This document shows, in pieces, positions 1,836 to 21,591 of a stretch of 64,000 bases of DNA. A program made the position numbers and the translations under genes. Positions within the stretch are counted from its first letter, which is position 1. Each line of letters starts with the position of its first letter. A model generated the notes under the pieces. It was not told where the DNA came from, did not search any database, and saw only the letters and a list, made by a program, of their open reading frames with translations. This stretch comes from an uncultured Lachnospiraceae bacterium (GTDB lineage: Bacteria; Bacillota; Clostridia; Oscillospirales; CAG-272), in contig CAYXHC010000001.1 in the NCBI GenBank assembly GCA_964464905.1, positions 1,097 to 65,096 of the forward strand, given 5' to 3'.

Positions 1836-1873
1836 AATTACCTCCAATGTTTTTGTTATAACTGTACAATTTA

Positions 1874-2081: not shown

Positions 2082-3560
2082 GATCTTAGAGACCGAGCTT
2101 TTCGAACGCCTTTTCGATCTGCTTGTTGGTCTGCTTTTCTACCTTAGCGTAGAGGGAAGCGGGGTTAACGTCTACGCTCTTGAGGGAGGAGTACGCGGAG
2201 CCCCAGTTGAAGAATACGCCGAGGTCGTAGCAACGGTTAGCAAAGATGATGTCGAGCATTTCGCCGGACTCTTCGTCACGGGAGTAGCGGGACTTGAGCT
2301 GACCTTCGTAGTAAGCGGGCATAAGGATCTCGGAACCCTTGGCAGCCATAGCTTCGAGAATGATGCTGGTCTGGTAGGGGCTTGCGCAGTCCTTACCAAC
2401 GGTCATAACGCAGGAGTTAACTGCGATATAGGAGTAGTAGGTGTCAATGTCAGAGCTGTACTTGGGATAAGGAAGGATACCGAAGTCGTATTCGTTTTCA
2501 CGGTAGTCGCGAACGAAAGCGATAACCTCGGTTCCGAAGAGGCACTTACCTTCCTTAAGGCAGGTGGTGATGTGCGCAACAGCGTCGGAAACGGTGGAGG
2601 TGGTGGTCCAGTTTACGTTTTCGGTGTCGCCCATGAGCTCAACGATATCTTCGAATACGTTAACGAACTGTTCGGAGTTCCAGTTGATCTTGGGTGTGCC
2701 TGCTTCGTCAAGGGAAGCGAGGGTGAGACCTGCGGATTCCCAGCTTGCAGGGAAGTTTTCGCCGTGTGTAACGAAACCGTAGATGTCGCCGGAGTCGAGA
2801 GCGCCGGAGCCGTTTTCGTCAGAGGTAGCGGTCATAGCCATTTCGTGCATCTTGTCCCAGGTCCATTCGTTGTTCTTAACGAGCTGGTAGGGATCTTCGA
2901 GGCCCTTGTACTTTTCAATGAGTTCCTTGATGAAGTAAACAGCCCAGATACATTCCTTGTCGGAAAGGGCGATGTCGCCGGAGAGCATGTAGTGCATGCC
3001 GCCGAGAGCGAGCTGCTCGGTGCAGTCGCTGTTCCACCAGGACTTGTCGAGATCGATGTAATCGAACAGGTCAAGCTCGTAGCAGAGGCCGGCGCCGGTA
3101 GCGGTGCAGGAGTACTCCATCTGGTTGAAGGTTACGCCGTAGTCGCCGGTGTTAGCTTCAACGGCAGTCTTGAAGAGGGTGTAAACTTCGGAGCCGATGC
3201 CGGAGGAAACCTCGGTGATGGTGATGTTGAGGAGGTTCTCGACAGCGTCGTTACGCAGATAAAGAGCGTTTTCGTACATGTCTTCGGAAGGCTCGTCAAA
3301 ATCGGTTGCGGTGTAGTTATACGTAACTACGGTAGGAGTGAGAACTACGAATTCATAGCCGTCGAAGTCCTCTGCGGGGATCTCGAGAACGTCAGAAACG
3401 TCACCCGTGCCGGAAGTTTCAGTGCCGGTACCGGTGTTTGCAGCGTCTCCCGTGCCCTCGCCGTCATCAGCGGGATCGGAGCAGGATGCAAGCGGTACTG
3501 CGAGCATGAGAACTACAAGCAGTAAGCTTAAGAATTTTTTCATAAATACCTCCAAGTATT
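2082..3560. repeat. Direct repeat copy 1 (1479 bp) of a tandem duplication with period 1695 bp
   Basis: 2082..3560 matches 3777..5255. The translated ORFs in several frames on both strands are letter-identical in the ORF track: 485 aa, 75 aa and 80 aa on the minus strand, and 72 aa plus the 317-aa tail on the plus strand. The boundary bases differ (2081 t vs 3776 c; 3561 c vs 5256 t). Confidence 0.9.
2086..3543 (-). CDS. Extracellular solute-binding lipoprotein, LplA/LipO-like (SBP paralog 2, duplicate copy 1)
   Basis: ORF track gives 2086..3720. I placed the start at ATG 3543 (MKKFLSLLLVVLMLAVPLASC) with GGAGG 5 nt upstream. The lipobox is L-A-S-C. The 485-aa product is identical to that of 3781..5238. 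Confidence 0.85.
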   Translation of the reverse strand: MKKFLSLLLVVLMLAVPLASCSDPADDGEGTGDAANTGTGTETSGTGDVSDVLEIPAEDFDGYEFVVLTPTVVTYNYTATDFDEPSEDMYENALYLRNDAVENLLNITITEVSSGIGSEVYTLFKTAVEANTGDYGVTFNQMEYSCTATGAGLCYELDLFDYIDLDKSWWNSDCTEQLALGGMHYMLSGDIALSDKECIWAVYFIKELIEKYKGLEDPYQLVKNNEWTWDKMHEMAMTATSDENGSGALDSGDIYGFVTHGENFPASWESAGLTLASLDEAGTPKINWNSEQFVNVFEDIVELMGDTENVNWTTTSTVSDAVAHITTCLKEGKCLFGTEVIAFVRDYRENEYDFGILPYPKYSSDIDTYYSYIAVNSCVMTVGKDCASPYQTSIILEAMAAKGSEILMPAYYEGQLKSRYSRDEESGEMLDIIFANRCYDLGVFFNWGSAYSSLKSVDVNPASLYAKVEKQTNKQIEKAFEKLGL

Positions 3561-3577
3561 CTATGTTACTACTGTTA

Positions 3578-3583
3578 ATGATA
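3578..3583 (-). promoter_or_regulatory. Probable -10 box (TATCAT) of the SBP2 promoter
   Basis: Same 15-nt block as at 1871-1885. It lies about 35 nt upstream of ATG 3543. Three TGAA-type repeats with an 11-bp period start 23 nt further upstream, at 3606, 3617 and 3628. Confidence 0.5.
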
Positions 3584-3702
3584 CAGCATATTGCGTCTGT
3601 AATGATGAATAATGTGTGAACGTCGTGTGAATTCATGACGAAGGGGGCGGGAGGTAGTCTTTTTTTGCGATGAAGTGCCTGAATGTATTTTCGCAATAGA
3701 AA

Positions 3703-3742
3703 CAAAAAAAGGAAATACACACGCCGATGCGTGTGTATTTCC
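3703..3742 (-). terminator. Rho-independent terminator after SBP paralog 3
   Basis: 14-bp stem GGAAATACACACGC (3711-3724) / GCGTGTGTATTTCC (3729-3742) with loop CGAT. On the minus strand it is followed by TTTTTTTGTTT. Confidence 0.85.
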
Positions 3743-3776: not shown

Positions 3777-5255
3777 GATCTTAGAGACCGAGCTTTTCGA
3801 ACGCCTTTTCGATCTGCTTGTTGGTCTGCTTTTCTACCTTAGCGTAGAGGGAAGCGGGGTTAACGTCTACGCTCTTGAGGGAGGAGTACGCGGAGCCCCA
3901 GTTGAAGAATACGCCGAGGTCGTAGCAACGGTTAGCAAAGATGATGTCGAGCATTTCGCCGGACTCTTCGTCACGGGAGTAGCGGGACTTGAGCTGACCT
4001 TCGTAGTAAGCGGGCATAAGGATCTCGGAACCCTTGGCAGCCATAGCTTCGAGAATGATGCTGGTCTGGTAGGGGCTTGCGCAGTCCTTACCAACGGTCA
4101 TAACGCAGGAGTTAACTGCGATATAGGAGTAGTAGGTGTCAATGTCAGAGCTGTACTTGGGATAAGGAAGGATACCGAAGTCGTATTCGTTTTCACGGTA
4201 GTCGCGAACGAAAGCGATAACCTCGGTTCCGAAGAGGCACTTACCTTCCTTAAGGCAGGTGGTGATGTGCGCAACAGCGTCGGAAACGGTGGAGGTGGTG
4301 GTCCAGTTTACGTTTTCGGTGTCGCCCATGAGCTCAACGATATCTTCGAATACGTTAACGAACTGTTCGGAGTTCCAGTTGATCTTGGGTGTGCCTGCTT
4401 CGTCAAGGGAAGCGAGGGTGAGACCTGCGGATTCCCAGCTTGCAGGGAAGTTTTCGCCGTGTGTAACGAAACCGTAGATGTCGCCGGAGTCGAGAGCGCC
4501 GGAGCCGTTTTCGTCAGAGGTAGCGGTCATAGCCATTTCGTGCATCTTGTCCCAGGTCCATTCGTTGTTCTTAACGAGCTGGTAGGGATCTTCGAGGCCC
4601 TTGTACTTTTCAATGAGTTCCTTGATGAAGTAAACAGCCCAGATACATTCCTTGTCGGAAAGGGCGATGTCGCCGGAGAGCATGTAGTGCATGCCGCCGA
4701 GAGCGAGCTGCTCGGTGCAGTCGCTGTTCCACCAGGACTTGTCGAGATCGATGTAATCGAACAGGTCAAGCTCGTAGCAGAGGCCGGCGCCGGTAGCGGT
4801 GCAGGAGTACTCCATCTGGTTGAAGGTTACGCCGTAGTCGCCGGTGTTAGCTTCAACGGCAGTCTTGAAGAGGGTGTAAACTTCGGAGCCGATGCCGGAG
4901 GAAACCTCGGTGATGGTGATGTTGAGGAGGTTCTCGACAGCGTCGTTACGCAGATAAAGAGCGTTTTCGTACATGTCTTCGGAAGGCTCGTCAAAATCGG
5001 TTGCGGTGTAGTTATACGTAACTACGGTAGGAGTGAGAACTACGAATTCATAGCCGTCGAAGTCCTCTGCGGGGATCTCGAGAACGTCAGAAACGTCACC
5101 CGTGCCGGAAGTTTCAGTGCCGGTACCGGTGTTTGCAGCGTCTCCCGTGCCCTCGCCGTCATCAGCGGGATCGGAGCAGGATGCAAGCGGTACTGCGAGC
5201 ATGAGAACTACAAGCAGTAAGCTTAAGAATTTTTTCATAAATACCTCCAAGTATT
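3777..5255. repeat. Direct repeat copy 2 (1479 bp)
   Basis: See copy 1. The repeat covers the stop codon, the whole CDS, the RBS and 17 nt of 5' UTR. It does not include the promoter or the terminator. Confidence 0.9.
3781..5238 (-). CDS. Extracellular solute-binding lipoprotein, LplA/LipO-like (SBP paralog 3, duplicate copy 2)
   Basis: ORF track gives 3781..5274. I placed the start at ATG 5238 with the same GGAGGTATTT-ATG context as copy 1. The protein is identical to 2086..3543. Confidence 0.85.
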   Translation of the reverse strand: MKKFLSLLLVVLMLAVPLASCSDPADDGEGTGDAANTGTGTETSGTGDVSDVLEIPAEDFDGYEFVVLTPTVVTYNYTATDFDEPSEDMYENALYLRNDAVENLLNITITEVSSGIGSEVYTLFKTAVEANTGDYGVTFNQMEYSCTATGAGLCYELDLFDYIDLDKSWWNSDCTEQLALGGMHYMLSGDIALSDKECIWAVYFIKELIEKYKGLEDPYQLVKNNEWTWDKMHEMAMTATSDENGSGALDSGDIYGFVTHGENFPASWESAGLTLASLDEAGTPKINWNSEQFVNVFEDIVELMGDTENVNWTTTSTVSDAVAHITTCLKEGKCLFGTEVIAFVRDYRENEYDFGILPYPKYSSDIDTYYSYIAVNSCVMTVGKDCASPYQTSIILEAMAAKGSEILMPAYYEGQLKSRYSRDEESGEMLDIIFANRCYDLGVFFNWGSAYSSLKSVDVNPASLYAKVEKQTNKQIEKAFEKLGL

Positions 5256-5496
5256 TATCGTGATAGATGTACAAAATAATTTTACAACTAAACCGTTTAC
5301 AAAAGGTTAATAAATTGTGAACGAAAGATTAACATAGTGAGATAATGAATAAAAAAACAAACTAATTGAGAAAAAATCCTCTGCCAATGGTATAACTTGA
5401 CGATTATCTTAAACAAATCTTAAGGTTTTGGGTTATTTTATCTTAATAATGTTTGTGGTACAATTGAAGCGTGAAATGAAAAAGGAGACGATATCT

Positions 5497-6201
5497 ATGT
5501 ACAACATACTCGTTTGCGATGACGAAAAGGATATAGTGTCGGCGCTTGAAATATATCTTTCGGCTGAGGGATACCGCGTTTATAAGGCGTATGACGGCGA
5601 GGAGGCGATAAGCACCGTGAGAACGGAAGAGATACATCTCGTGCTTCTGGACGTTATGATGCCGATGACGGACGGGCTCCGCGCTATGAGGCGCCTGCGT
5701 GAGTTTTCAAACGTGCCCGTTTTGCTGCTGACGGCGAAAAGCGAGGAAACGGACAAAATAGCGGGACTGAACCTGGGCGCCGACGATTACATAACGAAGC
5801 CTTTCAATCCGGTTGAGGTTGCGGCGCGGGTGAAGGCGAATCTGCGTCGTTATATGCAGCTTGGCGGCGGTGACGTGAAGGCTCTTGAAAGCGTTTACAG
5901 CGTTTCCGGCATCGTGATGGACGATAAAGCTCACACCGTTACGAGAGACGGCGAGCCTATATCGCTGACTCCCACCGAATACGATATACTGAAACTGTTT
6001 CTGATGCATCCCGACGAGCTGATGACGCCGAAGCGCATTTACGGCGCGGTCTGGGGCGGCAATTTCATCGGTGGCGAGGGGACCGTTGCCGTTCACATAC
6101 GTCATCTTCGCGAAAAACTTGAATACGATCCGTCCTCACCGAGATATCTTCGCGTTGTGTGGGGGCAGGGGTATAAGCTGTCAAGCATCGTTGGTGTTTG
6201 A
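5497..6201 (+). CDS. OmpR/PhoB-family response regulator (receiver plus winged-helix domain)
   Basis: ORF track gives 5428..6201. I placed the start at ATG 5497 (MYNILVCDDEKDIV) with AAGGAG 9 nt upstream. Receiver motifs are DD, LLDVMMP.DG and LLLTAK. The C-terminal end reads ...HIRHLREKLE...VWGQGYKL, typical of OmpR-type DNA-binding domains. Confidence 0.9.
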   Translation: MYNILVCDDEKDIVSALEIYLSAEGYRVYKAYDGEEAISTVRTEEIHLVLLDVMMPMTDGLRAMRRLREFSNVPVLLLTAKSEETDKIAGLNLGADDYITKPFNPVEVAARVKANLRRYMQLGGGDVKALESVYSVSGIVMDDKAHTVTRDGEPISLTPTEYDILKLFLMHPDELMTPKRIYGAVWGGNFIGGEGTVAVHIRHLREKLEYDPSSPRYLRVVWGQGYKLSSIVGV

Positions 6202-6233
6202 TATAAAAACATAAATATTAAGGAAAGGAACCG

Positions 6234-8156
6234 ATGAAAATGAAAAAACTTCAATGCTACAGATGGGCGCGAGTTGCGGCAGTGCTGCTGGCGGCTGTGA
6301 CGCTTACTGTTTTCTTTGGATCTGTCTTGGGGATCGTCGCTGCAGCAGATCTGGGACTCTATACACAAAGCTATGACAACGCAAAGGAAATGGCAGTGAC
6401 GGACGTGCTCTACGGCAATGCCTACCTTATAGTGAACGCCTACCGTGACAGCTATGTGCTTGGGTATTACTCACATTCACAGGCAAAAGCGCAGATGCAG
6501 GAAGCCGTGTTCCGCAAAAATCTTGATTTTGAGCTTTGGCGCGGGGAAGATATGCTCTATTCGTCTTATTCCGGTGTCGTTCCCGAGTCTGACGCTGTGT
6601 ATGAGCTTGGCGTGGCAGAGTACGGCGAGGGTGAATACAGCGTGCGTTTTTATCTTCTCAAAAACACGAAATGTTACGACGAGATCTATTTTATGGAGCA
6701 TTGGCTCGACAAGCTTTACGAAATGCGGTTCGCGCTCATCGTGATCTGCGTTTTGTCGTTGATCCTGTCGTTTTTGACGTGGCTTTTCGCCGTTTCTGCG
6801 GCGGGCAAGCGCCTCACCCTTGACGGATACGCAAGCGGCGTGCTGACGATGCTTGACCGCGTCCCTCTTGATCTGCTGCTGGCTTTTGCTGCAGCGGCTG
6901 TGTTTGTCGAGGCTCTCATATACGACTTCAACCACGACATAGGAGACATATTTACCGCCGTGCTTCTCGGCGTGTACGTTTTCGTTGATTCCGTATTCGT
7001 CACTCTTTTGTCGATGACCGTGAAGGTGCGTGTCGTAACGAAGACGGCACTTGATAACAATATCACGGCGATGCTTCTCAGACTGGGGTATAAGCTTGTA
7101 GTCCGGATATGGGAATGTATAAAGTCGGGAGCGAGGCTGATGGTGAAAATCGTTCGGTGCGTTCCCATGTTCTGGCGGACGCTGACTGCAACGATCGCCA
7201 TGACGGTGATAAGCTTCGTTATTACGTGTCTGGCTGCCGGAAACAGCGACGCGGCAATATTCCTTTTCGTGCTGTTTTGGCTTGCGGTAACGGTGTGGCT
7301 CTGCTTCTCCGCCTGGAATATGACGATACTCCGTCGGGGCGCCAAGCGTATCGCCGAAGGTGACCTTTCCTATCGCATCGACACGAAATATCTTCTTTTT
7401 GATTTTAAGCGTCACGCCGATGACCTTAACAGTATCAAAAACGGTATGGCAACGGCGGTGGAGGAACGGATGCGCGGCGAGATGTTCAAAACCGAGCTTA
7501 TCACCAACGTGTCCCACGATATAAAGACGCCTCTGACTTCAATAATAAATTACGTGGATCTTTTGAAAAAATGCGGAGTGGAAAATGAAGAAGCAAGAGG
7601 GTATATCGAGGTGCTCGACCGCCAATCCGCGAGACTCAAAAAGCTGACGGAGGATCTTGTAACTGCCTCGAAGGCGTCGTCGGGCGTCGTTAAAGCGGAG
7701 CTTAAGCCCTGCGATCTCGGGATCTTCGTTGAACAGACGGCGGGCGAATATGAAGAAAAGCTTGCGAAGGCGGATCTTAAGCTCGTGGTGTCAACGCCCG
7801 ACTATCCCGTTACCGTGGAGGCTGACGGCAAGCTTCTCTGGCGCATCTTCGATAACCTTATGAACAACGCTTTGAAATATTCGCTTCCGGGGTCGCGGGT
7901 GTACCTGTCTCTTAAAGAAAATGAAAGAGAAGGAACGGTGACGGTGACGAATGTGTCCCGCGAGCCGATAACGCGCGACGGGGGAGAGCTTACGGAAAGG
8001 TTCGTTCGCGGCGACGATTCCCGACATACGGAAGGCTCGGGACTCGGACTCTCTATCGCCAAAAGCTTCACGGAGCTTCAGAGAGGTACTTTTGACGTAA
8101 CGGCGGACTATGATCTGTTCCGCGTGACGGTGAAGTTTCCTTTGCCGGAGGAGTGA
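6234..8156 (+). CDS. Multi-pass membrane sensor histidine kinase (HisKA plus HATPase_c)
   Basis: The H-box is ELITNVSHDIKTPLTSI. The N box is NLMNNALKYS and the G boxes are GSGLGLSIAKS. TM1 is followed by an extracytoplasmic stretch of about 130 aa. Several further hydrophobic helices precede a HAMP-like linker. The gene starts 33 nt downstream of the response regulator stop. Confidence 0.9.
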   Translation: MKMKKLQCYRWARVAAVLLAAVTLTVFFGSVLGIVAAADLGLYTQSYDNAKEMAVTDVLYGNAYLIVNAYRDSYVLGYYSHSQAKAQMQEAVFRKNLDFELWRGEDMLYSSYSGVVPESDAVYELGVAEYGEGEYSVRFYLLKNTKCYDEIYFMEHWLDKLYEMRFALIVICVLSLILSFLTWLFAVSAAGKRLTLDGYASGVLTMLDRVPLDLLLAFAAAAVFVEALIYDFNHDIGDIFTAVLLGVYVFVDSVFVTLLSMTVKVRVVTKTALDNNITAMLLRLGYKLVVRIWECIKSGARLMVKIVRCVPMFWRTLTATIAMTVISFVITCLAAGNSDAAIFLFVLFWLAVTVWLCFSAWNMTILRRGAKRIAEGDLSYRIDTKYLLFDFKRHADDLNSIKNGMATAVEERMRGEMFKTELITNVSHDIKTPLTSIINYVDLLKKCGVENEEARGYIEVLDRQSARLKKLTEDLVTASKASSGVVKAELKPCDLGIFVEQTAGEYEEKLAKADLKLVVSTPDYPVTVEADGKLLWRIFDNLMNNALKYSLPGSRVYLSLKENEREGTVTVTNVSREPITRDGGELTERFVRGDDSRHTEGSGLGLSIAKSFTELQRGTFDVTADYDLFRVTVKFPLPEE

Positions 8157-8231
8157 AACAACGAGAAAGGGGAAATTTGCCGACTAATTCCAAAATCGCG
8201 GTCAAAATGTTACAATATTATTGATTTTTTA

Positions 8232-8261
8232 TTGACACAATGCAATTATATGTGTTATCAT
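8232..8261 (+). promoter_or_regulatory. SigA-type promoter for the first surface-protein gene
   Basis: TTGACA (8232-8237), 18 nt spacer, TATCAT (8256-8261), with TGTG immediately upstream of the -10. The conserved leader element starts about 7 nt after the -10 box. Confidence 0.65.
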
Positions 8262-8267
8262 ATAGAC

Positions 8268-8329
8268 AATAGTAGCCGGAGGGCGCCCTCCGTTATGATA
8301 GGTTCGCAGAACCTATCATAATAAACCTT
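8268..8329 (+). promoter_or_regulatory. Conserved 62-nt two-hairpin leader element, copy A
   Basis: 58 of 62 nt are identical to 12123-12184. It contains a 16-nt perfect palindrome, CGGAGGGCGCCCTCCG (8277-8292). It also contains a 13-bp perfect-stem hairpin, TTATGATAGGTTC-GCA-GAACCTATCATAA (8293-8321). No U-tract follows the hairpin. Confidence 0.8.
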
Positions 8330-8379
8330 TATGGCGGGAAGTTCCGACGGCACGAAAATTTATTTTGGAGGAACTTTTC

Positions 8380-9237
8380 ATGAAAAAGATTCTTGCTCTC
8401 GTAATGGTAGTTGCAATGCTCGCATGCTTCGCTACCGCTACATCCGCTGCAGAAATGAAGTTTGTTGAAGAAGCAAGCTTTGATTTCAGCACCACCGAAG
8501 GCCTCAAGGGCTATACCGCAAGCTGGCCCGGTAACGACCTCATGTGCAACGCTGCTGCTGCAGAGGTTGCTGAAGGCGTTATCGTTGACGGCGCATTCGT
8601 TGCAGGCACCATGGGCTTCGTTGTAGACGAAGTATTTGATGCTACCAACGGTATCAAGATCAAGATGGACATTACCATCGACAAGACCAAGGTTGGCGGT
8701 TCTCCCTGGTTCCAGGGCGTTGCTTCCTTCTTTAATGCAGACGGCAAGTCCGCTGAATTCCTCGCTCTCGCTGGCGAAGAGTTCGAGCACTCCTACGATG
8801 CATACTACCTCAACTACAAGGGTTCCGGTACTCACTTCCAGGCACATACCGGTGACCTCGGCGAAGGCGCTACCGGCAACAATGTTGTTTGGGGCGGCGA
8901 CGTTGCTGAAGACCTCGTTACCGACGATGCTCCCACCTGGAGCGGCACTGTAGAATTCATCGTTGTTCCCGCTGAAACCGGCGCTACCGTTACCATCCTT
9001 GTTGACGGCGTTGACATCGGTCTCCCCAACAACCCCGAATTCGCAAACTTCCTCTCTGACGAAATGCTCGTTACCATCGGTGCTACTCACTACGGCGACT
9101 ATGCACTCGCTTCCACCATTGATAACGTTGTTATCTACACCATGCAGGAAGAAGCTACTCAGACCGGTTTCGCTACTGTTGCTCTCGCAATCGTTGCAAT
9201 CGGTTCCGGCGCTTACATCGTATCCAAGAAGCACTAA
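8380..9237 (+). CDS. Secreted ConA/LamG-like (DUF1080-like) beta-sandwich protein with a C-terminal QTG-TM-KKH anchor
   Basis: ORF track gives 8365..9237. I placed the start at ATG 8380 with GGAGGA 8 nt upstream. The signal peptide is MKKILALVMVVAMLACFATATSA/AE. The C-terminus is EEATQTGFATVALAIVAIGSGAYIVSKKH (motif, hydrophobic helix, basic tail). The fold call is by eye from the beta-rich pattern ending ...STIDNVVIY. Confidence 0.7.
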   Translation: MKKILALVMVVAMLACFATATSAAEMKFVEEASFDFSTTEGLKGYTASWPGNDLMCNAAAAEVAEGVIVDGAFVAGTMGFVVDEVFDATNGIKIKMDITIDKTKVGGSPWFQGVASFFNADGKSAEFLALAGEEFEHSYDAYYLNYKGSGTHFQAHTGDLGEGATGNNVVWGGDVAEDLVTDDAPTWSGTVEFIVVPAETGATVTILVDGVDIGLPNNPEFANFLSDEMLVTIGATHYGDYALASTIDNVVIYTMQEEATQTGFATVALAIVAIGSGAYIVSKKH

Positions 9238-9253
9238 TTATTGGATCAAAAAA

Positions 9254-9278
9254 GGCTCCCTAAAGGGGGCCTTTTTTT
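9254..9278 (+). terminator. Rho-independent terminator
   Basis: Stem GGCTCCC (9254-9260), loop TAAA, stem GGGGGCC (9265-9271), followed by TTTTTTT (9272-9278). It is nearly the same hairpin as at 10190-10213. Confidence 0.85.
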
Positions 9279-9307
9279 AGATGGGCATCAAAATTGTAAA
9301 TAAAGTG

Positions 9308-9336
9308 TTGACAAAGTTTTTATGCGGTGTTATTAT
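9308..9336 (+). promoter_or_regulatory. SigA-type promoter for the second surface-protein gene
   Basis: TTGACA (9308-9313), 17 nt spacer, TATTAT (9331-9336). Confidence 0.7.
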
Positions 9337-9390
9337 GAGATATAAAGTTTTGATGCTTCATCAAAAACAAAAAAACATGGAGGAACTTTT

Positions 9391-10170
9391 ATGAAAAAGA
9401 TTCTTGCTCTCGTAATGGTAGTTGCTATGCTCGCATGCTTCGCTACCGTTGCAAACGCTGCTGCTCCCGAAGGACAGATTGCGTACTACACCTTTGACGC
9501 TGCTGACGAAGCAGGCCTCACCGTAAACGGCGACAACGCTACCTACGCTGACGGCGCTGTTACTCTCGGCGACGCTACTTACCTCACTGCGGACATCGAT
9601 CTTTCCGGTGTTACCGCTATGACCGTTGCTCTCAAGGTTAAGATCACCGATACTGATGCTAACTGGGGCTTTGAGATCACCTCTGAAGAGGCTCACTCCT
9701 GGCCGGCTGAGCATTACATCGGCTGCCTCCTCAACGGCAGTGCTGTGATCGAACGCTACAACAACACCGACGGTCGTCCCAATTCCGCTTCCGCTACTAT
9801 CGCGGTTGACGAATGGGTTGAGCTCGTAGTTGTTCTTCCTGAAGACGGCTCCATCGTTCTTTATGCTGACGGCGCAGAAGTTGCTAACGTTCCTCAGACC
9901 GAAGGCTTCGACCTCGCTATCGCAAACTGCATCGGCGAAACTCCCGTATTCCAGATTGGTAAGGCTAACTGGGGCGAAGGCGAATACGCTGCAGGCACCT
10001 CCATCGACACTTTTGCAGTTTACAACACTGCTCTCTCTGCTGACGAAGTAGCTACCGCTCTCGAAGCTCCCGCAGCAGACGAAGAAGCTGCTCAGACCGG
10101 TTTCGCTACCGTTGCTCTCGCAATCGTTGCAATCGGCTCCGGCGCTTACATCGTGTCTAAGAAGCACTAA
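9391..10170 (+). CDS. Secreted LamG-domain protein with a C-terminal QTG-TM-KKH anchor
   Basis: GGAGGA lies 7 nt upstream of the start. The signal peptide is MKKILALVMVVAMLACFATVANA/AA. The LamG-like hallmark is ...IGKANWGEGEYAAGTSIDTFAVYNTALSADEV, resembling the common ...D.V.IYNRALSA.EI ending. The C-terminus is EEAAQTGFATVALAIVAIGSGAYIVSKKH. Confidence 0.75.
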   Translation: MKKILALVMVVAMLACFATVANAAAPEGQIAYYTFDAADEAGLTVNGDNATYADGAVTLGDATYLTADIDLSGVTAMTVALKVKITDTDANWGFEITSEEAHSWPAEHYIGCLLNGSAVIERYNNTDGRPNSASATIAVDEWVELVVVLPEDGSIVLYADGAEVANVPQTEGFDLAIANCIGETPVFQIGKANWGEGEYAAGTSIDTFAVYNTALSADEVATALEAPAADEEAAQTGFATVALAIVAIGSGAYIVSKKH

Positions 10171-10189
10171 TTCCTGAATGAGCGAAAAA

Positions 10190-10213
10190 GGCTCCCGAAA
10201 GGGAGCCTTTTTT
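10190..10213 (+). terminator. Rho-independent terminator
   Basis: Stem GGCTCCC (10190-10196), loop GAAA, stem GGGAGCC (10201-10207), followed by TTTTTT. Confidence 0.85.
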
Positions 10214-10325: not shown

Positions 10326-11675
10326 ATGAAAAAGATACTTGCTCTTTTACTTGCCGTTATGATGCTGGCAGCTCTCGTTGCCTGCGACGATGGCAGTCTG
10401 CCTCCCGTTGACGGAGAAAGCGATAGCGAAGGCACGGGAACGGGCGAAGGCACCGAAACTGAGGCAGAATCCGAAACCGAAGAAGAAGACGAGGACTATG
10501 TCCCTGACTTTGAAGCGAAATACGGCGGCTGCGTCGGTGTGGGCGTTGAGTCCGGCTCCGCTTACTTCGATAACCTTAAGGTTGTGTCTAAGCAGACCGA
10601 TAAGAAGGAGCTCTACTACGATGAGCTCGAGGGCGAGCTTCCCGTTCTCACTTACGTTACGGGTGCTGAAGCCGATTGGGCTGTTGCTGTTGACCCCACC
10701 GAGGATGAAGATGAGGATGATCCCAACCACGCTCTCGGATACACGGGCTCTTCCGCTTCTATGGTGACCTTCGGTTCCTCCAACTGGAATTACTATCAGT
10801 ATTCCATGAAGGTGTATCCCGTTGACGACACCACAGTTATCGATCTTTATTTCTGCGTTACCGATGCTGATAACTATTTCGTCGTTTCCGTTGGCGGAAA
10901 CGATGGCGATTCCCTTTGCTATCAGGTAGTCGGCGGCGAGAAGACGGCTGTTGCGCCCAGTGTTTACGCTCCCGTTGAGATCGGTGAATGGACCTCCGTC
11001 GGCATTACCGTTGAACGTGAGACCATCGATATCTACATCGGCGGCACCAAGCGCTTCTCTCTCTTTAATGATGAATTCGAATACAGCATGACCATCGCAA
11101 ACAGAGCTACCGTTAACGCTCCTTACTGCGCTTCCTGGGAAACTCCCGGCTCCATTAACGACGGTATGTATCCTGACGCTACCTACGCTTCCGTTTCCAA
11201 CGGTACCGCTTACGGCTCCTGGAGCATGGCAGATATATCCGAGACCATTTCTTACGAATGGGACGAGGCTGTGACTGTTGACGGTATCGGTCTCTTCTTC
11301 TGGCAGGACAAGGAAACCCGTGAATACTGGCTCGAAAACGGCGGTATCCACTCTGCTTCCTACTATACCATCCAGTATCTCGATGAAAACGGCGACTACG
11401 TAGACGTTGAAAATGCTGTTGGTCTTGAGGTTCTCGATGACGTTATGAACCAGACCTTCTTCGATGCTGTTACCACCACGTCAATTCAGGTAACTCTCTA
11501 TAAGTTCACCGAAGAGGAGGATGCTACCTACAGATTCTCCGAATATAAGGAGTATGAAGCAAACGGCGGCGATGTCGATGCTGAAGATGCACCTACGGAT
11601 CCTTCCATCCGCGGACTCGGACTCTTTGAGTTTGAAGTGTACGCAGCAGGCACAGTTGAAAGACCCGAGGAATGA
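10326..11675 (+). CDS. Lipoprotein with an acidic linker, a ConA/LamG-like domain and a C-terminal discoidin/galactose-binding-like domain
   Basis: The signal and lipobox are MKKILALLLAVMMLAALVAC. A Glu/Asp/Thr-rich linker follows. FDNLKV and ...IDIYIGG... strands resemble DUF1080/LamG. The C-terminal half (ASWETPGSINDG...GSWS...ISYEWDEAVTVDGIGLFFWQD...) looks like an F5/8-type-C carbohydrate-binding module. Domain calls are by eye. Confidence 0.6.
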   Translation: MKKILALLLAVMMLAALVACDDGSLPPVDGESDSEGTGTGEGTETEAESETEEEDEDYVPDFEAKYGGCVGVGVESGSAYFDNLKVVSKQTDKKELYYDELEGELPVLTYVTGAEADWAVAVDPTEDEDEDDPNHALGYTGSSASMVTFGSSNWNYYQYSMKVYPVDDTTVIDLYFCVTDADNYFVVSVGGNDGDSLCYQVVGGEKTAVAPSVYAPVEIGEWTSVGITVERETIDIYIGGTKRFSLFNDEFEYSMTIANRATVNAPYCASWETPGSINDGMYPDATYASVSNGTAYGSWSMADISETISYEWDEAVTVDGIGLFFWQDKETREYWLENGGIHSASYYTIQYLDENGDYVDVENAVGLEVLDDVMNQTFFDAVTTTSIQVTLYKFTEEEDATYRFSEYKEYEANGGDVDAEDAPTDPSIRGLGLFEFEVYAAGTVERPEE

Positions 11676-11828: not shown

Positions 11829-12122
11829 ATTGTTCGATAAAATGAACAAAGTATGGCGAAAAAGTCCGACTTGTGTTATGAAATATGGTGAAAAAGATGA
11901 AAAAGTGCTGTGGGGACTTGAAATATTACACCGATGTATGATAAAATAAACAAACATTAAAAATCAAAATGTATAGGTGTTTGTATTTTGTTTTTTATTG
12001 GGAAGCGATTCCTTGACGACGACGGCGTTGCCGCGTCGTTCAATGGCGCATTGTGATGCCCGGTCAGTGTATGCCGGACCGGTGCGCAACTGTCTTTCCT
12101 TGTGTATGCGTTATTATATAAA

Positions 12123-12184
12123 AATAGCAGCCGGAGGGCGCCCTCCGTTATGATAGGTTCTGCGAACCTATCATAATAAACCTT
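12123..12184 (+). promoter_or_regulatory. Conserved 62-nt two-hairpin leader element, copy B
   Basis: It has the same palindrome (12132-12147) and the same 13-bp stem (12148-12160 / 12164-12176) as copy A. The 3-nt loop is TGC here, the reverse complement of GCA in copy A. One further substitution is at 12128. Confidence 0.8.
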
Positions 12185-12285: not shown

Positions 12286-14748
12286 ATGACAACTTTCAAG
12301 AGACTTATGAGCGTGCTGCTTGTTCTCTGTATGTTGTCCGTAGCTTTCGTTTCCTGCTCTAACAAGGGCGGCGACGCGAAGGTCGGTAACTATACATATA
12401 ACAGCTACGCAAGCAGTCTCGGAACCAACTGGAACCCCCACACGTGGGAAGTAAGTTCCGATGACGCTATCCTCGGCTACGTAAGCTCCCCCTTCTGCAC
12501 GATGCAGGTTTCCGATTCCGAAAACGGCGTCTACCAGTGGGTGTATGAGATGGCTACCTCTATCGAGGACGTAACCAAGGATCACCAGGACGATCTCACC
12601 AAGTATGCTGTAACACTTCCCGAAGGCCAGTCGGCTTCCGAGACCACCGAAGGTTACGTTTACGAGATCAAGCTCAATGAAGATGCTAAGTGGGAAAACG
12701 GCACTCCTATCAATGCTGACACCTACATCTACTCCATGAAGGCTCTTCTTGACCCCGCTATGAAGAACTACCGCGCTAACCTCTACTATGCAGGCGAATC
12801 TGCAGTAGCAGGCGGTAATGCTTACTACTATAGCGGAGACATTGCATGGGATACCGATCTCATGGGTGCTGAAACCCTCGAAACCATCGTTAAGGGCGAA
12901 GACGGCACTTACACCACCTCTGATGGCAAGCCCATCGCTGTAGCTCTCACCTCCGCGCTTGATTGGCTCAGCGGATACGCTCTTTCCGACTACGTTGACG
13001 CTTACGGCGAAGCATACTTCGGCGTTGCAGATTACGAAACCCTTTCTGCTATGGCAGTTGGCGGCTTTGTACCCGTAACCGACGAAGTTATCGACCTTAT
13101 GGAAGGCGTTATCACCGCTGTTGAAGCTTGGGGCGAAACCAGAGCTGACGTAGCTCAGTACTTCTACTCCGGTACTCAGATGCCTGAGGCTACCTACGAC
13201 GTTGTAGGCTGCTACAAGGTTGACGATTACACCATTCGTTATGTATGCCAGACATACCTCGACAAAAACTACTTCCTCACCTCCTGCACCTCTACCTGGC
13301 TCGTATATGAAGATCTCTACGAAGCAGGAAAGGACACCACCGGTACTCTCGTAACCACTAACTACAACTCTTCTCCTGAAACCACCATGTCCTACGGTCC
13401 TTACAGAATCGAGTCCATGCAGAACGACAAGCAGATCGTTTACGTTCAGAATGAGAACTGGTACGGCTACGAAAAGGAAGGCGACTACCTCGTATCCTAC
13501 ACTCCTTACCTCGTTGACGGTAAGAACGTACAGCGCTACATGACCACCAAGATCGTTATCAACGTTATGGATAACGACGCTGCAAAGCTCGCGTTCCTTA
13601 AGGGTGACCTTGACGACTGGGCTCCCAGTGCAGACGACCTCGTTAACTACGCTATGAGCGAACAGCTCTACAAGGTTGACGAAACCTACACCATGTCCTT
13701 CTTCTTCAACACAGACGTTTCTATGCTCCAGGAGATGGATAACTCCAAGGGTAACATCAACTCCGTTGTTCTTTCAAACTACAACTTCCGTAAGGCATTC
13801 TCCCTTGCAGTTGACCGTACTGAGTTTGTAACCGCTACCGAAGGCTACAAGCCCGCTTACGCACTTATGAACAACCTCTACTTCTACGACGTATACAACG
13901 ATCCTAACTCCTCCTACAGAGGCTCTGATGAGGCTATGCAGGCAGTCTGCGATCTTTACGGCGTAAAGTACGGTGAAGGTACTCCTTATGCAACTCTCAA
14001 GGAAGCATACGACTCCATCACCGGTTACAACCTTACTGAAGCTAAGGCTCTCATGGCAACCGCTTGCCAGGAGCTCGTAGATGCAGGCCTCTACACCGCA
14101 GGTGAAGACATCACCATCCGTATCGGCTGGTCCAAGTCTGCTCTCACTTCTGCTGATAACAATCAGATCGCTCTTATGAACAAGTACATCAACGCTGCTG
14201 TTGAAGGATCCGGCTTCGGCAAGATCACTCTCGAAGGCGTTGGCTCCGTTGAAGACCGTTACGGCGACGTTCCCGCAGGTAACTTCGCAATCGGTTACGG
14301 CGCATGGGGCGGTGCTGCGTTCTATCCTTTCCGTAACTTCCAGGTTTACTGCGACACCGAGCAGTATGCAGGCCAGATCAATGAAATGGCATGCTGGGAT
14401 CCTTCCGTTGAAGAGCTCACTCTCACGGTAGACGGCAAGGAAGTAACTATGACATGGCAGGAATGGTCTCGTTCCATGACCGGTACCGGCCAGTTCGCAA
14501 CTGCAGACTTCTCCGTTAAGCTCGCTATCACGGCTCAGATGGAAAAGCTCTTCCTTGAAAAGTACTACAGAATCCCCTTCTGCGGAACTACTATATGCTC
14601 TATGCTCTCCTACAAGTGCAACTACTACACCGATGAATACAACATCATGTACGGTTTCGGCGGACTTGAGCTTATGACCTACAACTACACCGATGAAGAA
14701 TGGGCAGAATTCTGCGCTGAACAGAATGGCGATATTAAGTACGAATAA
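12286..14748 (+). CDS. ABC transporter substrate-binding lipoprotein, family 5 (Opp/Dpp-type), unusually long at 820 aa
   Basis: The signal and lipobox are MTTFKRLMSVLLVLCMLSVAFVSC. By eye the layout is family-5: ...YVYEIKLNEDAKWENGTPINADTYIYSMKALLDP..., then ...YGPYRIES...VYVQNENWYG... It is followed by Opp-type permeases and ATPases. Confidence 0.8.
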   Translation: MTTFKRLMSVLLVLCMLSVAFVSCSNKGGDAKVGNYTYNSYASSLGTNWNPHTWEVSSDDAILGYVSSPFCTMQVSDSENGVYQWVYEMATSIEDVTKDHQDDLTKYAVTLPEGQSASETTEGYVYEIKLNEDAKWENGTPINADTYIYSMKALLDPAMKNYRANLYYAGESAVAGGNAYYYSGDIAWDTDLMGAETLETIVKGEDGTYTTSDGKPIAVALTSALDWLSGYALSDYVDAYGEAYFGVADYETLSAMAVGGFVPVTDEVIDLMEGVITAVEAWGETRADVAQYFYSGTQMPEATYDVVGCYKVDDYTIRYVCQTYLDKNYFLTSCTSTWLVYEDLYEAGKDTTGTLVTTNYNSSPETTMSYGPYRIESMQNDKQIVYVQNENWYGYEKEGDYLVSYTPYLVDGKNVQRYMTTKIVINVMDNDAAKLAFLKGDLDDWAPSADDLVNYAMSEQLYKVDETYTMSFFFNTDVSMLQEMDNSKGNINSVVLSNYNFRKAFSLAVDRTEFVTATEGYKPAYALMNNLYFYDVYNDPNSSYRGSDEAMQAVCDLYGVKYGEGTPYATLKEAYDSITGYNLTEAKALMATACQELVDAGLYTAGEDITIRIGWSKSALTSADNNQIALMNKYINAAVEGSGFGKITLEGVGSVEDRYGDVPAGNFAIGYGAWGGAAFYPFRNFQVYCDTEQYAGQINEMACWDPSVEELTLTVDGKEVTMTWQEWSRSMTGTGQFATADFSVKLAITAQMEKLFLEKYYRIPFCGTTICSMLSYKCNYYTDEYNIMYGFGGLELMTYNYTDEEWAEFCAEQNGDIKYE

Positions 14749-14794
14749 TTCTGATAACTGAAATAATCATACTGAATACACCATAAAAAAGGCG

Positions 14795-14926
14795 GCAGGG
14801 GGGAATTTGATCCCCCCTGCTAACCTTGATTTTTCGGGTTGATGAAAATTGTTCCTTTTTTCGTTCGAGATCGTTCACTCCGACGTCCCGTTGGACGGGC
14901 ATTCCGAGCGGATCATCTCGAGCGAA
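14795..14926 (+). promoter_or_regulatory. Structured spacer between the SBP and permease genes (two hairpins)
   Basis: Hairpin 1 is GCAGGGGGGA (14795-14804) / TCCCCCCTGC (14811-14820). Hairpin 2 has outer stem TTCGTTCGAGAT (14860-14871) / ATCTCGAGCGAA (14915-14926, one G-U pair) and inner stem CCCGT-TGG-ACGGG. No clean U-tract follows either hairpin. Confidence 0.55.
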
Positions 14927-14984
14927 GAATCAACTATTTTTCACTCTATAATCTACCATCCCTTAAGCTAAGGAGAATAACGTT

Positions 14985-15950
14985 ATGACGAAATACGTTA
15001 TAAAAAGAATCCTTTTGATGTTCTTCACGCTGTTCGTTATTGTTACGATCGCGTTTACGCTTATAAGACTGCTCCCTCAGCAGCCGCCGGACGGACTCGA
15101 CGCGAACCAGCGAAAAGCAGTTCTTGATCGTTGGAGAGCTCTTGGTTATGAAGAGCCCATTCCTACGCAGTTTGCGATCTACCTGAAGAATATCTTCACA
15201 AACGGAGACTTCGGCACGTCCTGGTCTATTGACTACCGTGAGCCTGCCCTTGATCTTCTTTTGTCCAGACTTCTTCCCACCGTTATCGTAAACCTTTATT
15301 CACTGCTGTTCTCCATCCCGATAGGTATCGGCCTCGGCATTTATGCAGCAGTCAAGAAAAATAAATGGCAGGACTCCTTCATAAGCACTATCGTTATGGT
15401 GTTTATTTCCGTGCCCTCCTACGTTTATGCCTTCCTCGTTCAGTATTTCTTCTATTATAAGTGGAACCTTCTGCCTCAGCTCGTTTCGTCTCTTGCGGAT
15501 GCGGGCGGTTCCTGGTTCTCCTGGAAGATGTTCGTAAGTATGATCTCCCCCGTGCTTGCGCTCTCCTTCGGTGAGATCGCAGGTCTTTGCCGTTTCACAA
15601 GAGCAGAGCTTACGGAGACCCTTACCTCCGACTATATGCTGCTCGCACGCACGAAGGGACTTACCCGCGCGCAGGCAACCACCCGTCACGCACTTAAAAA
15701 TGCAATGGTGCCGATCCTCCCCATGATCATTTCCAGCTTCGTTGGCATCCTCGGCGGTTCTATGATCATCGAACAGATCTTCTCCGTTCCCGGCGTTGGT
15801 CAGCTCTATATGCGTTCCATCAATCTGCTTGACTACGACGTATTTATGGTCGATACTGTATTCTACACGTTTATCGGACTTCTTGCCGGCATCGTCGTTG
15901 ATATAAGCTACGGCTTCATCGATCCGAGAATCAGAATGGGAGAAAAATAA
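14985..15950 (+). CDS. ABC transporter permease, OppB/DppB-like
   Basis: 321 aa, six predicted TM segments. The EAA-type loop reads LARTKGLTRAQATTRHALKNAMVPILP. AAGGAG lies 9 nt upstream of the ATG. Confidence 0.9.
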   Translation: MTKYVIKRILLMFFTLFVIVTIAFTLIRLLPQQPPDGLDANQRKAVLDRWRALGYEEPIPTQFAIYLKNIFTNGDFGTSWSIDYREPALDLLLSRLLPTVIVNLYSLLFSIPIGIGLGIYAAVKKNKWQDSFISTIVMVFISVPSYVYAFLVQYFFYYKWNLLPQLVSSLADAGGSWFSWKMFVSMISPVLALSFGEIAGLCRFTRAELTETLTSDYMLLARTKGLTRAQATTRHALKNAMVPILPMIISSFVGILGGSMIIEQIFSVPGVGQLYMRSINLLDYDVFMVDTVFYTFIGLLAGIVVDISYGFIDPRIRMGEK

Positions 15951-15951
15951 T

Positions 15952-17604
15952 ATGGCAGAAAAAACCTTTGATATTAACAGTATCCCGCGTGAGAAATTTG
16001 AATTTGCCCACGAAGGCGAACGCCTTATGGACAAAAAGTTCGATGATAAGCCGATAAGCTATTTCCGCGATGCATGGATCCGCTTCCGCAAGAATAAAGC
16101 GTCCGTTGCCGCGCTTGCTATCATCGTTATTATTGCTCTTTTCTCGTTCCTTTGCCCCGTTATCTCCGGATTCAGATCTACGGAAAAGACGACGTTTGAT
16201 AAAACGTTTATGGACGTTTATTATGCAAAGAAGGGACCGAGAAACGAGTTCCTTGCCAATATCGGCATTGCCGACGGTACCGTTGAGCGCTCTTATTCCG
16301 AGAAATCTCTCGTTTACACCGTTGGTATAGGCGTTGGTGCTGCAGACGGCGATGCTCACGGTGCGACCTTTGAGGAGGGGCTTGCAAGCAAGTATCAGCC
16401 TCTCATAAGAGGCTACAGTGATCCCGTGCTTCAGCAGAATGCAAAGAAGCAGATGGTTGAATATTATTATGCCGATTCCGACGTTTATCTTGAGGTTGGC
16501 TTTATCGAAAAGTCTATCGAGCAGTCCGAATACGCAGCGCTCAAGGCGTGGGAAGAGGAGACCGGTCTTCAGGTCCTCTATCCTCTTGTTGCGAAGAACG
16601 AATTCAATGCAGACCCTGCAAACGCAAACAACTGGTATAAGACTCAGAAGAACAATCCCGTTTCCGTTGATGAAGACGGTAACGTGACAAAGATCAAGCT
16701 TGCCGATCTCCAAAGCGGTAAGGCAGTGCTCGAGGATAATTACGAGCGCGACGCTGAGGGTAATGTTCTTTATTACAAGTACTCCGGAAGCAGCGACTTT
16801 GATACTGCTATGTTCAGAGTCCGTCTCCTTTACTATAACTACTATATGTTCAACAATGGCTTCGCACCCGAATATATTTTCGGTACCGACAGCCAGGGCT
16901 ACGACCTTGCTATACGTATGGCAGATGGTATCAGACTCTCTCTGCTCGTTGCCGTTTTCGTTTCCGTTATCAATTTCGTTCTCGGCGCTATGTACGGTGC
17001 CATTGAAGGATACTACGGCGGAACCATTGATATCATTCTTGAGCGTGTGTCCGATATCCTTGCAGGTATCCCCTTCGTCGTCGTTGCGACATTGTTCCAA
17101 CTCCACCTGAAGGACCCGATGGACCTTTTCTTCAGAAATGAATTCGGTCTTAAGTCTGCAGGTCCTATCGTATGTCTTCTCTTTGCATACGTCGTAACCG
17201 GATGGATCGGCACTGCGTCCAGAGTCAGAACGCAGTTCTACCGCTTCAAGTCTCAGGAATACGTTATGGCAGCAAGAACCCTCGGCGCGAGCGACCGCCG
17301 TATCATTTGGAAGCACATTTTCCCGAACACACTCGGTACTATCATCACATCATCCGCACTCGTTATCCCCGGAGTTATCAACTCAGAAAGTATGCTCAGC
17401 TATTTGGGTATCGTTAAGCTCGGTACAGCGGAAGCAACCTCTCTCGGTACGCTTCTCTCCGATGCAAGCAGCATCTGGACGAACTACCCGCACCTTCTCA
17501 TTTTCCCCGCTCTCATACTCTCTCTCCTTATGATATGCTTCAACCTATTCGGTAACGGTCTGCGCGATGCATTTAACCCGTCCCTTCGCGGTGTGGAGGA
17601 CTAA
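15952..17604 (+). CDS. ABC transporter permease, OppC/DppC-like, with an insertion of about 240 aa between TM1 and the GTD motif
   Basis: 550 aa. TM1 spans about aa 51-72. The canonical FGTDSQGYDLAIRMADGIRLSL motif appears only at aa 310. The EAA loop is ARTLGASDRRIIWKHIFPNTLG. The start lies 1 nt after the previous stop. Confidence 0.9.
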   Translation: MAEKTFDINSIPREKFEFAHEGERLMDKKFDDKPISYFRDAWIRFRKNKASVAALAIIVIIALFSFLCPVISGFRSTEKTTFDKTFMDVYYAKKGPRNEFLANIGIADGTVERSYSEKSLVYTVGIGVGAADGDAHGATFEEGLASKYQPLIRGYSDPVLQQNAKKQMVEYYYADSDVYLEVGFIEKSIEQSEYAALKAWEEETGLQVLYPLVAKNEFNADPANANNWYKTQKNNPVSVDEDGNVTKIKLADLQSGKAVLEDNYERDAEGNVLYYKYSGSSDFDTAMFRVRLLYYNYYMFNNGFAPEYIFGTDSQGYDLAIRMADGIRLSLLVAVFVSVINFVLGAMYGAIEGYYGGTIDIILERVSDILAGIPFVVVATLFQLHLKDPMDLFFRNEFGLKSAGPIVCLLFAYVVTGWIGTASRVRTQFYRFKSQEYVMAARTLGASDRRIIWKHIFPNTLGTIITSSALVIPGVINSESMLSYLGIVKLGTAEATSLGTLLSDASSIWTNYPHLLIFPALILSLLMICFNLFGNGLRDAFNPSLRGVED

Positions 17605-17607
17605 GTC

Positions 17608-21555: not shown

Positions 21556-21591
21556 CTGAAAACAGAGAAAAACTCTGCTGAGGTGTTGGCT

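Follow-up and report, generated by a model that had tools for sequence, protein, structure and literature searches.

In Streptococcus pyogenes, the emm-like genes of the mga regulon (emm, mrp and enn) lie in tandem and encode sortase-anchored proteins with conserved signal-peptide and LPXTG ends and divergent middles, and recombination between the genes gives rise to mosaics. Their M-like products are coiled-coil fibrils under immune diversifying selection. In Helicobacter pylori, the paralogous adhesin genes babA/babB, homA/homB and sabA/sabB have end segments that are alike within a strain, a pattern read as concerted evolution through intragenomic gene conversion in PMC3960876, which, citing Pride and Blaser (2002), also records chimeric genes. 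Here we describe two adjacent genes, A and B, in a 64,000-nucleotide (nt) stretch of DNA, hereafter the window, from an uncultured Lachnospiraceae bacterium (GTDB CAG-272; GCA_964464905.1, contig CAYXHC010000001.1, positions 1,097-65,096, forward strand). Both genes are predicted to encode surface proteins, and their beginnings and ends are near-identical around divergent cores. We conclude that these ends have very probably been kept alike by segmental gene conversion between old paralogs, and that the cores evolve as ordinary orthologs.

Two adjacent genes share both ends

Genes A and B are arranged head to tail on the plus strand (Table 1). Their first 57 coding nucleotides (8380-8436 and 9391-9447) differ at a single site, 8415 (A/T), where the change is synonymous (GCA/GCT). 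The last 90 coding nucleotides (9148-9237 and 10081-10170) differ at five sites, of which 9177, 9204, 9222 and 9225 are synonymous, leaving Thr/Ala at 9157 (ACT/GCT) as the sole amino-acid change. Both genes carry the ribosome-binding site (RBS) GGAGGAACTTTT, with a 1-nt indel ahead of the ATG. In BLASTN alignments the 5' tract spans 85 nt at 93% identity, RBS included, and the 3' tract 133 nt at 89.5%, including the stop codon and the terminator hairpin. An earlier note on this DNA, made from its letters, had given the same counts of 1/57 and 5/90, all changes in the latter being synonymous or Thr/Ala, and we reproduce them exactly; the shared RBS that it reported is borne out, and so are its matching hairpins, GGCTCCC-TAAA-GGGGGCC (9254-9271) and GGCTCCC-GAAA-GGGAGCC (10190-10207), which are both present and both fold well. 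Between the modules, the cores of about 700 nt each show zero nucleotide similarity to one another by BLASTN. The tail pattern occurs twice in the window and gave no chance matches in shuffled windows.

Flanks group by genome and cores by gene

The family found by protein searches is small, with 35 sequences of B type and 8 of A type, exclusively from uncultured Clostridia/Eubacteriales; the loci of relatives were retrieved and compared. The relatives are designated by L numbers, among them L002 (GCA_045588245.1), L010 (GCA_045594085.1), L023 (JAZMZX010000075.1, reverse complement) and L031, a strain 98% identical to the window. The signal peptide reads MKKILALVMVVAMLACFAT on both A and B in the window and in L003, MKKILSLVMVVIMLSCFAT on both in L002, and MKKILVIALAALMLAVMAVPAFA on B, A and a second A-type gene, A', in L010. 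In L002, A and B differ at 1/57 sites of the 5' module and at none of 81 in the 3' module, and the homologous tracts extend over 172 nt at 93.6% identity, reaching about 99 nt into upstream DNA, and over 133 nt at 99.2%, covering the whole terminator. In L010 the two copies agree at 100% over a tract of 88 nt, of which 23 nt belong to the untranslated region (UTR). Across genomes, orthologous 5' flanks differ at 8-22 of the 57 sites, amino-acid changes included, compared with 0-5 between A and B of one genome.

This pattern was quantified in a quartet test, in which the parsimony-informative sites of A and B from two genomes are split into those that group the sequences by genome and those that group them by gene. 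In the 5' module, the window/L002 comparison gave 8-10 sites by genome and 0 by gene, window/L010 25 and 0, and L002/L010 26 and 0. The corresponding counts in the 3' module were 6 and 0, 9 and 1, and 9 and 0. In the core, the window/L002 comparison gave 6 sites by genome and 131 by gene. Because flank sites group by genome while core sites group by gene, the ends of the two genes show the signature of concerted evolution.

Mosaic sequences among the relatives point the same way. The B genes of L002 and L010 have cores that are 90% identical at the nucleotide level, 5' modules that are 58% identical and tails that are 80% identical. The B genes of L004 and L005 show the reverse pattern, with 5' modules at 91% and cores at 69%. 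Genes A and A' of JAZNXW are identical over the first ~119 nt and the last 38 residues around cores that are only ~50% identical, and A, A' and B of this genome all carry one and the same new 5' module. The comparison of strains for chimeric forms, suggested in the earlier note, yielded flank/core mosaics among relatives; in L031, the cores are the same as in the window, in the same order, and differ by 3 and 10 nt.

The order of A, B and a third gene, C, is kept in the window, L002, L003 and L031. Gene B occurs in two genomic contexts, a locus with a two-component system (TCS) and an ATP-binding cassette (ABC) transporter (window, L002, L003) and a radical-SAM/SKI context (L004, L005, L010), where the order is B then A. 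Whole units have also been gained or lost: L002 has an extra gene, Z, JAZNXW has both A and A', and L004 and L005 have B alone.

Two side observations concern the modules as repeats. In L023, an orphan 3' module lies directly after the histidine-kinase stop codon (~3026-3106) and consists of the last 36 nt of a QTG-tail coding sequence and a terminator, the gene body being absent; loss of a Z-like gene, which L002 retains at 7938-8642, probably left this scar. Independent contigs from MAGs and from Logan (L001, L003, L010, L012, L017 and L023) start or stop in or at the shared 5' module or gene A, which suggests that such short repeats break short-read assemblies.

Synonymous divergence and selection

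Synonymous divergence (dS) between the flanks of A and B in the window is 0.08 at the 5' end and 0.20 at the 3' end, and 0.06-0.07 in L002. The dS comparison proposed in the earlier note therefore finds low values at synonymous sites that are not saturated. At residues identical between window A and B, the same codon is used in 39/44 cases in the flanks and in 29/49 in the core (P = 2e-5).

A tandem pair of genes in L026, W and B, served as a negative control. This pair belongs to a bioreactor clade (L026/L008); its signal peptide is of the kind seen in A and B, and its two tails are identical at 20/24 residues. The dS of its tail is 1.2, which is saturated, and 9/20 identical residues share a codon. 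Since this control pair has the same tail peptide and saturated dS, the identity of the flanks is not accounted for by peptide-level selection alone. Saturated synonymous sites under purifying selection, named in the earlier note as the pattern that would speak against recombination, are absent in the window clade and are found only in the control clade.

The cores are conserved orthologs under purifying selection. Their ratio of nonsynonymous to synonymous divergence (dN/dS) is 0.05-0.28, compared with 0.03-0.17 for neighbouring genes, values which apply at the level of the whole gene and to few sequences. At this level, the same ratios led us to reject diversifying selection on the cores.

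Expression signals and copy number

Both genes have a near-consensus promoter with an extended -10 box, an RBS and their own stable terminator. Having each their own predicted promoter and terminator, A and B are separate transcription units. No silent donor cassettes were seen, both window copies being equipped for expression by these predicted signals, and no recombinase or invertase genes were seen among the annotated neighbouring genes examined.

Copy number is low. Across 185,579 species genomes, the tail pattern matched only 15 stretches. The search for further copies of the modules, another proposal of the earlier note, succeeded in three related representative genomes, with 3 or 4 tail matches each, one of them a gene-less remnant, and returned just the two known copies in the window. 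Within the clade, the tail is found on at least 10 different cores. A metagenome scan with the 5' module of the window/L002 type gave no match, and in a scan with the tail pattern the sole matches came from the distant bioreactor clade used above as the negative control. An Rfam scan of the window found nothing at gathering thresholds; a match to VrrA in the leader of gene A, seen in a permissive scan, was dismissed as chance-level. Long antisense open reading frames (ORFs) at 8329-9234 and 9361-10167 were likewise set aside, as by-products of codon-biased genes.

How the shared ends may be maintained

In the mechanism that we propose, A and B are two old paralogs, each an independent unit of promoter, RBS, signal peptide, core, LPXTG-like ([A/P/T]QTG) signal and terminator. 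Repeated non-reciprocal homologous recombination between the tandem copies would homogenise the 5' module (~85-170 nt) and the 3' module (~130 nt). This recombination would act between short tandem direct repeats and would presumably be of the RecA type. Conversion tracts would end where the homology between A and B ends, at the signal-peptide cleavage site and in the linker before QTG. Reciprocal or unequal crossing-over at the same repeats could add or remove units, which may account for Z in L002, A and A' in JAZNXW, the lone B of L004 and L005, and the scar in L023.

Several observations weigh against this reading. In the window tails the longest run of perfect identity is only ~26 nt, a length near the minimum that homologous recombination requires; given this run and the five tail differences, conversion at the 3' end of the window genome may no longer be active and may be fading. 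The window/L003 quartet has no informative sites by genome, the two sharing the same flank alleles, so the last homogenisation in this lineage is older than their split. No conversion event has been caught in progress, and the strain-level tail differences between the window and L031 look like new mutations. A fresh conversion event in the L031 tails was considered and rejected: polarisation with L003 makes new mutations in the window lineage the better reading of the three tail polymorphisms. Strong codon bias inflates the similarity somewhat, as the 59% codon identity in the core indicates, and the comparison genomes are all metagenome-assembled genomes (MAGs) or metagenome contigs.

Among other explanations, the flanks might serve as homology arms by which whole cores are swapped between genomes or loci after DNA uptake, with cassette exchange as the main process. 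The same B core with different flanks in L002 and L010, the presence of B in two genomic contexts and the variety of cores that carry the tail would all fit. However, replacement of the flanks inside one genome fits equally well, as the common new 5' module of A, A' and B in JAZNXW illustrates, and exchange anchored in the flanks would leave a flank phylogeny congruent with the recipient genome, just as conversion does in these data. The arms are moreover very short (57-130 nt), and no case was found of one genome's flanks around a foreign core in conflict with the neighbouring genes. We regard core swapping as the main process as unlikely. Purifying selection on the signal and anchor peptides combined with strong codon bias, and no recombination, would account for functional peptides conserved across the family, for a tail peptide kept even in distant relatives and for the sharing of codons by 59% of identical core residues. 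It is contradicted by the quartet test and by orthologous flanks that differ at 8-26 sites, against 0-5 for paralogous flanks within a genome. The similarity also continues past the coding sequence into RBS/UTR and terminator, codons agree more often in the flanks than in the core, and the control pair has reached saturation, so that an account by selection alone is very improbable.

Conserved ends around divergent cores on surface proteins also look like programmed antigenic or phase variation, with an expression site and donor cassettes as in pilE/pilS, vlsE or mycoplasma vsp, and assembly breaks at the modules show that they are present in several copies. Yet each copy has its own strong predicted promoter, RBS and terminator, there are 2 copies in 64 kb and 3 or 4 tail matches per related genome hit, and no recombinase or invertase lies among the annotated neighbours. 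The cores are orthologous, with the dN/dS values given above, and in L031 the A and B cores of the window recur in unchanged order; we see very little room for a programmed system. An artefact of metagenome assembly, in which collapsed repeats or chimeric joins created the shared ends, might be suspected where all sequences are MAG or metagenome contigs and several break inside the modules. The modules are, however, shorter than typical reads, and a few private single-nucleotide polymorphisms tell those of A from those of B. Assemblies made independently in different studies show the same architecture, as does a Logan contig whose sequence is identical to the window. Real repeats would break contigs likewise, and we give an artefact hardly any credence.

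Segmental gene conversion between old paralogs therefore stays our preferred reading of the shared ends. It bears on the proposal of the earlier note that the conserved flanks are a substrate for gene conversion or cassette exchange in a variable surface-protein family. The conversion part of this proposal survives, with genome-specific shared ends in three lineages and the same core joined to different flanks. The part about a variable family with cassette exchange does not: the cores are conserved in order and under purifying selection, the genes have their own promoters, copies are few and no silent donors were seen. The pair thus reveals a known evolutionary process, not programmed switching, and no new mechanism. 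A more speculative idea, which we hold to be rather unlikely, is that in this clade the promoter/RBS/signal-peptide and sorting-signal/terminator modules are standard "plug-in" arms, kept identical by conversion, for the exchange, duplication and deletion of different glycan-binding cores between loci or genomes through homologous recombination. If true, this would amount to a natural modular surface-display system that tunes which glycans are captured by the adjacent transporter locus.

The cores are deep paralogs of one fold

The core of gene B matches PF13385 (Laminin_G_3) with 53.6 bits, above the gathering threshold of 27.6, and that of gene A with only 20 bits, below it. In AlphaFold models (predicted local distance difference test score, pLDDT, 73.6 for A and 85.4 for B), both proteins match carbohydrate-binding domains of the ConA-like beta-sandwich type. 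Foldseek matches of the A model comprise legume lectins, a galectin-like protein, enzymes of glycoside hydrolase (GH) family 16 and domain 4 of AbnA, with E values of 6e-6 to 1e-4 against lectins and GH16; the B model matches carbohydrate-binding module (CBM) 40 and AbnA domain 4. For gene A, it is the predicted structure that suggests membership in the ConA-like lectin fold. When signal peptide and tail are left out, the last ~65 core residues of A and B can still be aligned (BLASTP E 2e-4; hhalign probability 83%, E 9e-6). The earlier note had called the middles unrelated, which holds for nucleotides; given the common fold and the detectable homology over these last ~65 residues, the cores are not unrelated as proteins. 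They are weakly homologous, deep paralogs of one fold.

A side observation concerns the LamG domain in relatives. The protein P0034 resembles a circularly shifted LamG protein of the P0033 type, in which the last strands and the "ALSADEVAAL…GGDP" linker come first and the full domain follows. Tandem copies that recombined unequally may have given rise to this form.

Predicted secretion and anchoring

The 5' module encodes a Sec-type signal peptide, MKKILALVMVVAMLACFAT…A-x-A (N terminus MKKIL…A-x-A). The 3' module encodes a linker, the motif [T/A]QTG at position -26, the hydrophobic stretch FATVALAIVAIGSGAYIV and a final SKKH. Read from sequence, A and B both have the features by which sortase substrates are defined in PMC4155245, namely a signal peptide at the N terminus and, at the C terminus, a motif located 17-45 residues before the end together with a hydrophobic stretch and two or more basic residues. 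Helices are predicted at both ends in the structural models. The window tails score 15.5 and 14.8 bits on the hidden Markov model (HMM) NF033846 (Rumino_NPXTG), below the cut-off of 23.5, and 18.9 and 18.7 bits on TIGR03065, below the cut-off of 21.35. For P0017, a relative, the tail reaches 24.4 bits on NF033846, which is above the cut-off, and 15.7 on TIGR01167, which is below the cut-off of 15.9. No sortase gene was found among the window ORFs scanned (~0.4 to 55.3 kb). With HMM scores below cut-off and no sortase gene among these ORFs, anchoring by sortase is something that we infer, and A and B are probably attached in this way to the cell wall.

In the distant relatives L006 (5754-7350) and L008 (6955-8612), a B-like gene lies directly downstream of an orthologous pair of LGT-like and Rce1-like (CPBP protease) genes. 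The window's only Rce1-like gene (Table 1) is not an ortholog of the L006/L008 genes, with 27-30% identity confined to one domain, and neither the window nor L002 has an LGT homolog. We considered the LGT/Rce1-like neighbours as a non-sortase system for processing the tail and did not adopt this lead; they may be mere syntenic neighbours.

Genomic context

Genes A and B lie between a two-component system and a gene for a lipoprotein, followed by an importer and a GH43+CBM6 enzyme (Table 1), in what looks like a Gram-positive glycan-utilisation locus. Judging from this context and from the fold of their cores, A and B are likely to be surface glycan-binding components serving the adjacent transporter.

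Table 1. Coordinates of genes, modules and neighbouring features in the window.
Feature	Position	Strand	Description
Lipoprotein gene, copy 1	396-1847		weak sub-threshold SBP_bac_8 match
Lipoprotein gene, copy 2	2086-3720	-	without Pfam match
Lipoprotein gene, copy 3	3781-5274	-	without Pfam match
OmpR-type response regulator and histidine kinase	5428-8156		upstream of A and B
Promoter of gene A (predicted, sigma-70)	8232-8261	+	TTGACA-18-TATCAT, TG before -10 box; 11/12 consensus matches
82-nt element, copy 1	8249-8329		from predicted +1 of gene A
5' module of gene A	8366-8450	+	RBS GGAGGAACTTTT and signal-peptide coding DNA; very probably homogenised with 9378-9461
Gene A	8380-9237	+	285 aa: Sec signal peptide, ConA-like beta-sandwich core (predicted), linker, putative [A/T]QTG sorting signal, transmembrane (TM) helix, KKH end
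3' module of gene A	9148-9277	+	EEA-TQTG putative sorting signal, stop codon, intrinsic terminator (hairpin 9254-9271); very probably homogenised with 10081-10213
Promoter of gene B (predicted, sigma-70)	9308-9336	+	TTGACA-17-TATTAT, TG before -10 box; 11/12 consensus matches
5' module of gene B	9378-9461	+	RBS and signal-peptide DNA
Gene B	9391-10170	+	259 aa: signal peptide, LamG/Laminin_G_3 core, linker, putative AQTG sorting signal, TM helix, KKH end
3' module of gene B	10081-10213	+	putative sorting signal, stop codon, terminator (hairpin 10190-10207)
Gene C	10326-11675	+	449-aa lipoprotein (…LVAC lipobox), family D4; first 54 nt 76% identical to A/B 5' module; no QTG tail
82-nt element, copy 2	12105-12184		~100 nt upstream of ABC binding-protein gene
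Opp-type ABC importer	12286-21023		with 820-aa binding protein; downstream of gene C
GH43+CBM6 enzyme	21583-23013		after ABC importer
Rce1-like gene	27042-28226	-	only one in the window

Three further observations concern this neighbourhood. The histidine-kinase gene (6234-8156) has a dS of 1.45 and 73% nucleotide identity to that of a close relative, compared with a dS of 0.2-0.58 for the adjacent A, B and transporter genes (window vs L023 and L002), and this high divergence suggests that the locus itself is a recombination mosaic.

The 82-nt element occurs twice, its copies being 91% identical overall and 94% over a 62-nt core. It contains a -10-like box and two strong hairpins, one formed by CGGAGGGC and GCCCTCCG and the other by the 13-bp stem TTATGATAGGTTC…GAACCTATCATAA. 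In copy 2 the second hairpin reads as the exact reverse complement of its counterpart in copy 1, with the loop inverted. The element is present in strain L031 and absent in L002, L003 and L023, and matches no Rfam family; it could be a shared operator or a stabiliser of the 5' UTR.

The tandem lipoprotein copies 2 and 3 (2082-3564 vs 3777-5258) are 99.93% identical over 1483 nt, so the duplication or conversion behind them is very recent. Copy 1 matches in patches, at 77-83% identity, and the L031 contig has just one of these copies before it ends.

Significance and comparison with known systems

The A/B pair offers a clean, controlled case of segmental concerted evolution in a Gram-positive gut commensal, in which the ends for secretion and anchoring are homogenised and the binding domains diverge freely. 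In practical terms, the modules illustrate how short identical repeats can break MAG assemblies, and they can mislead orthology calls that rely on protein termini. The tail marks a small clade-specific putative [A/P]QTG sorting signal, and the TCS, the putatively wall-anchored LamG proteins, the lipoprotein, the Opp-type ABC importer and GH43 together form a candidate Gram-positive glycan-capture locus.

With the sortase substrates of Clostridia, such as those of Clostridioides difficile SrtB ((S/P)PXTG), NF033846 (Rumino_NPXTG) and the QVPTGV class of TIGR03065, A and B share a signal peptide, an xxQTG motif placed 26 residues before the C terminus, a hydrophobic helix and a terminal KK(H/R). 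They differ in that the window copies read A-T-Q-T-G and A-A-Q-T-G, without Pro, and stay below the HMM cut-offs. Both predicted cores superpose on ConA-like/LamG CBMs, namely CBM40 and domain 4 of the Geobacillus GH43 arabinanase AbnA (PDB 5hon), and a GH43+CBM6 enzyme is encoded downstream in the A/B locus. Identity to these domains is however only 10-23%, with query-normalised TM-scores (TMq) of 0.35-0.55, and the A/B domain is stand-alone and predicted to be wall-anchored, whereas AbnA domain 4 is a module of an enzyme.

In contrast to the emm-like proteins, A and B have globular ConA-like domains (predicted), are under purifying selection and belong to a nutrient-uptake locus of a gut commensal. 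The closest parallel lies in the bab and hom genes, paralogous surface lectin/adhesin genes which have a divergent binding segment and concerted end segments. The bab genes encode Gram-negative outer-membrane proteins at distant loci, only their 3' segment is concerted, and conversion switches binding during infection. Genes A and B, by comparison, are adjacent, Gram-positive and predicted to encode wall-anchored proteins, both of their ends are homogenised, RBS and terminator included, and no phenotype-switching chimeras were seen among the loci compared. What distinguishes the present case from these systems is a Gram-positive pair of predicted wall-anchored ConA-like proteins, in a nutrient locus of an uncultured gut clade, whose genes are homogenised at both ends together with their regulatory bases.

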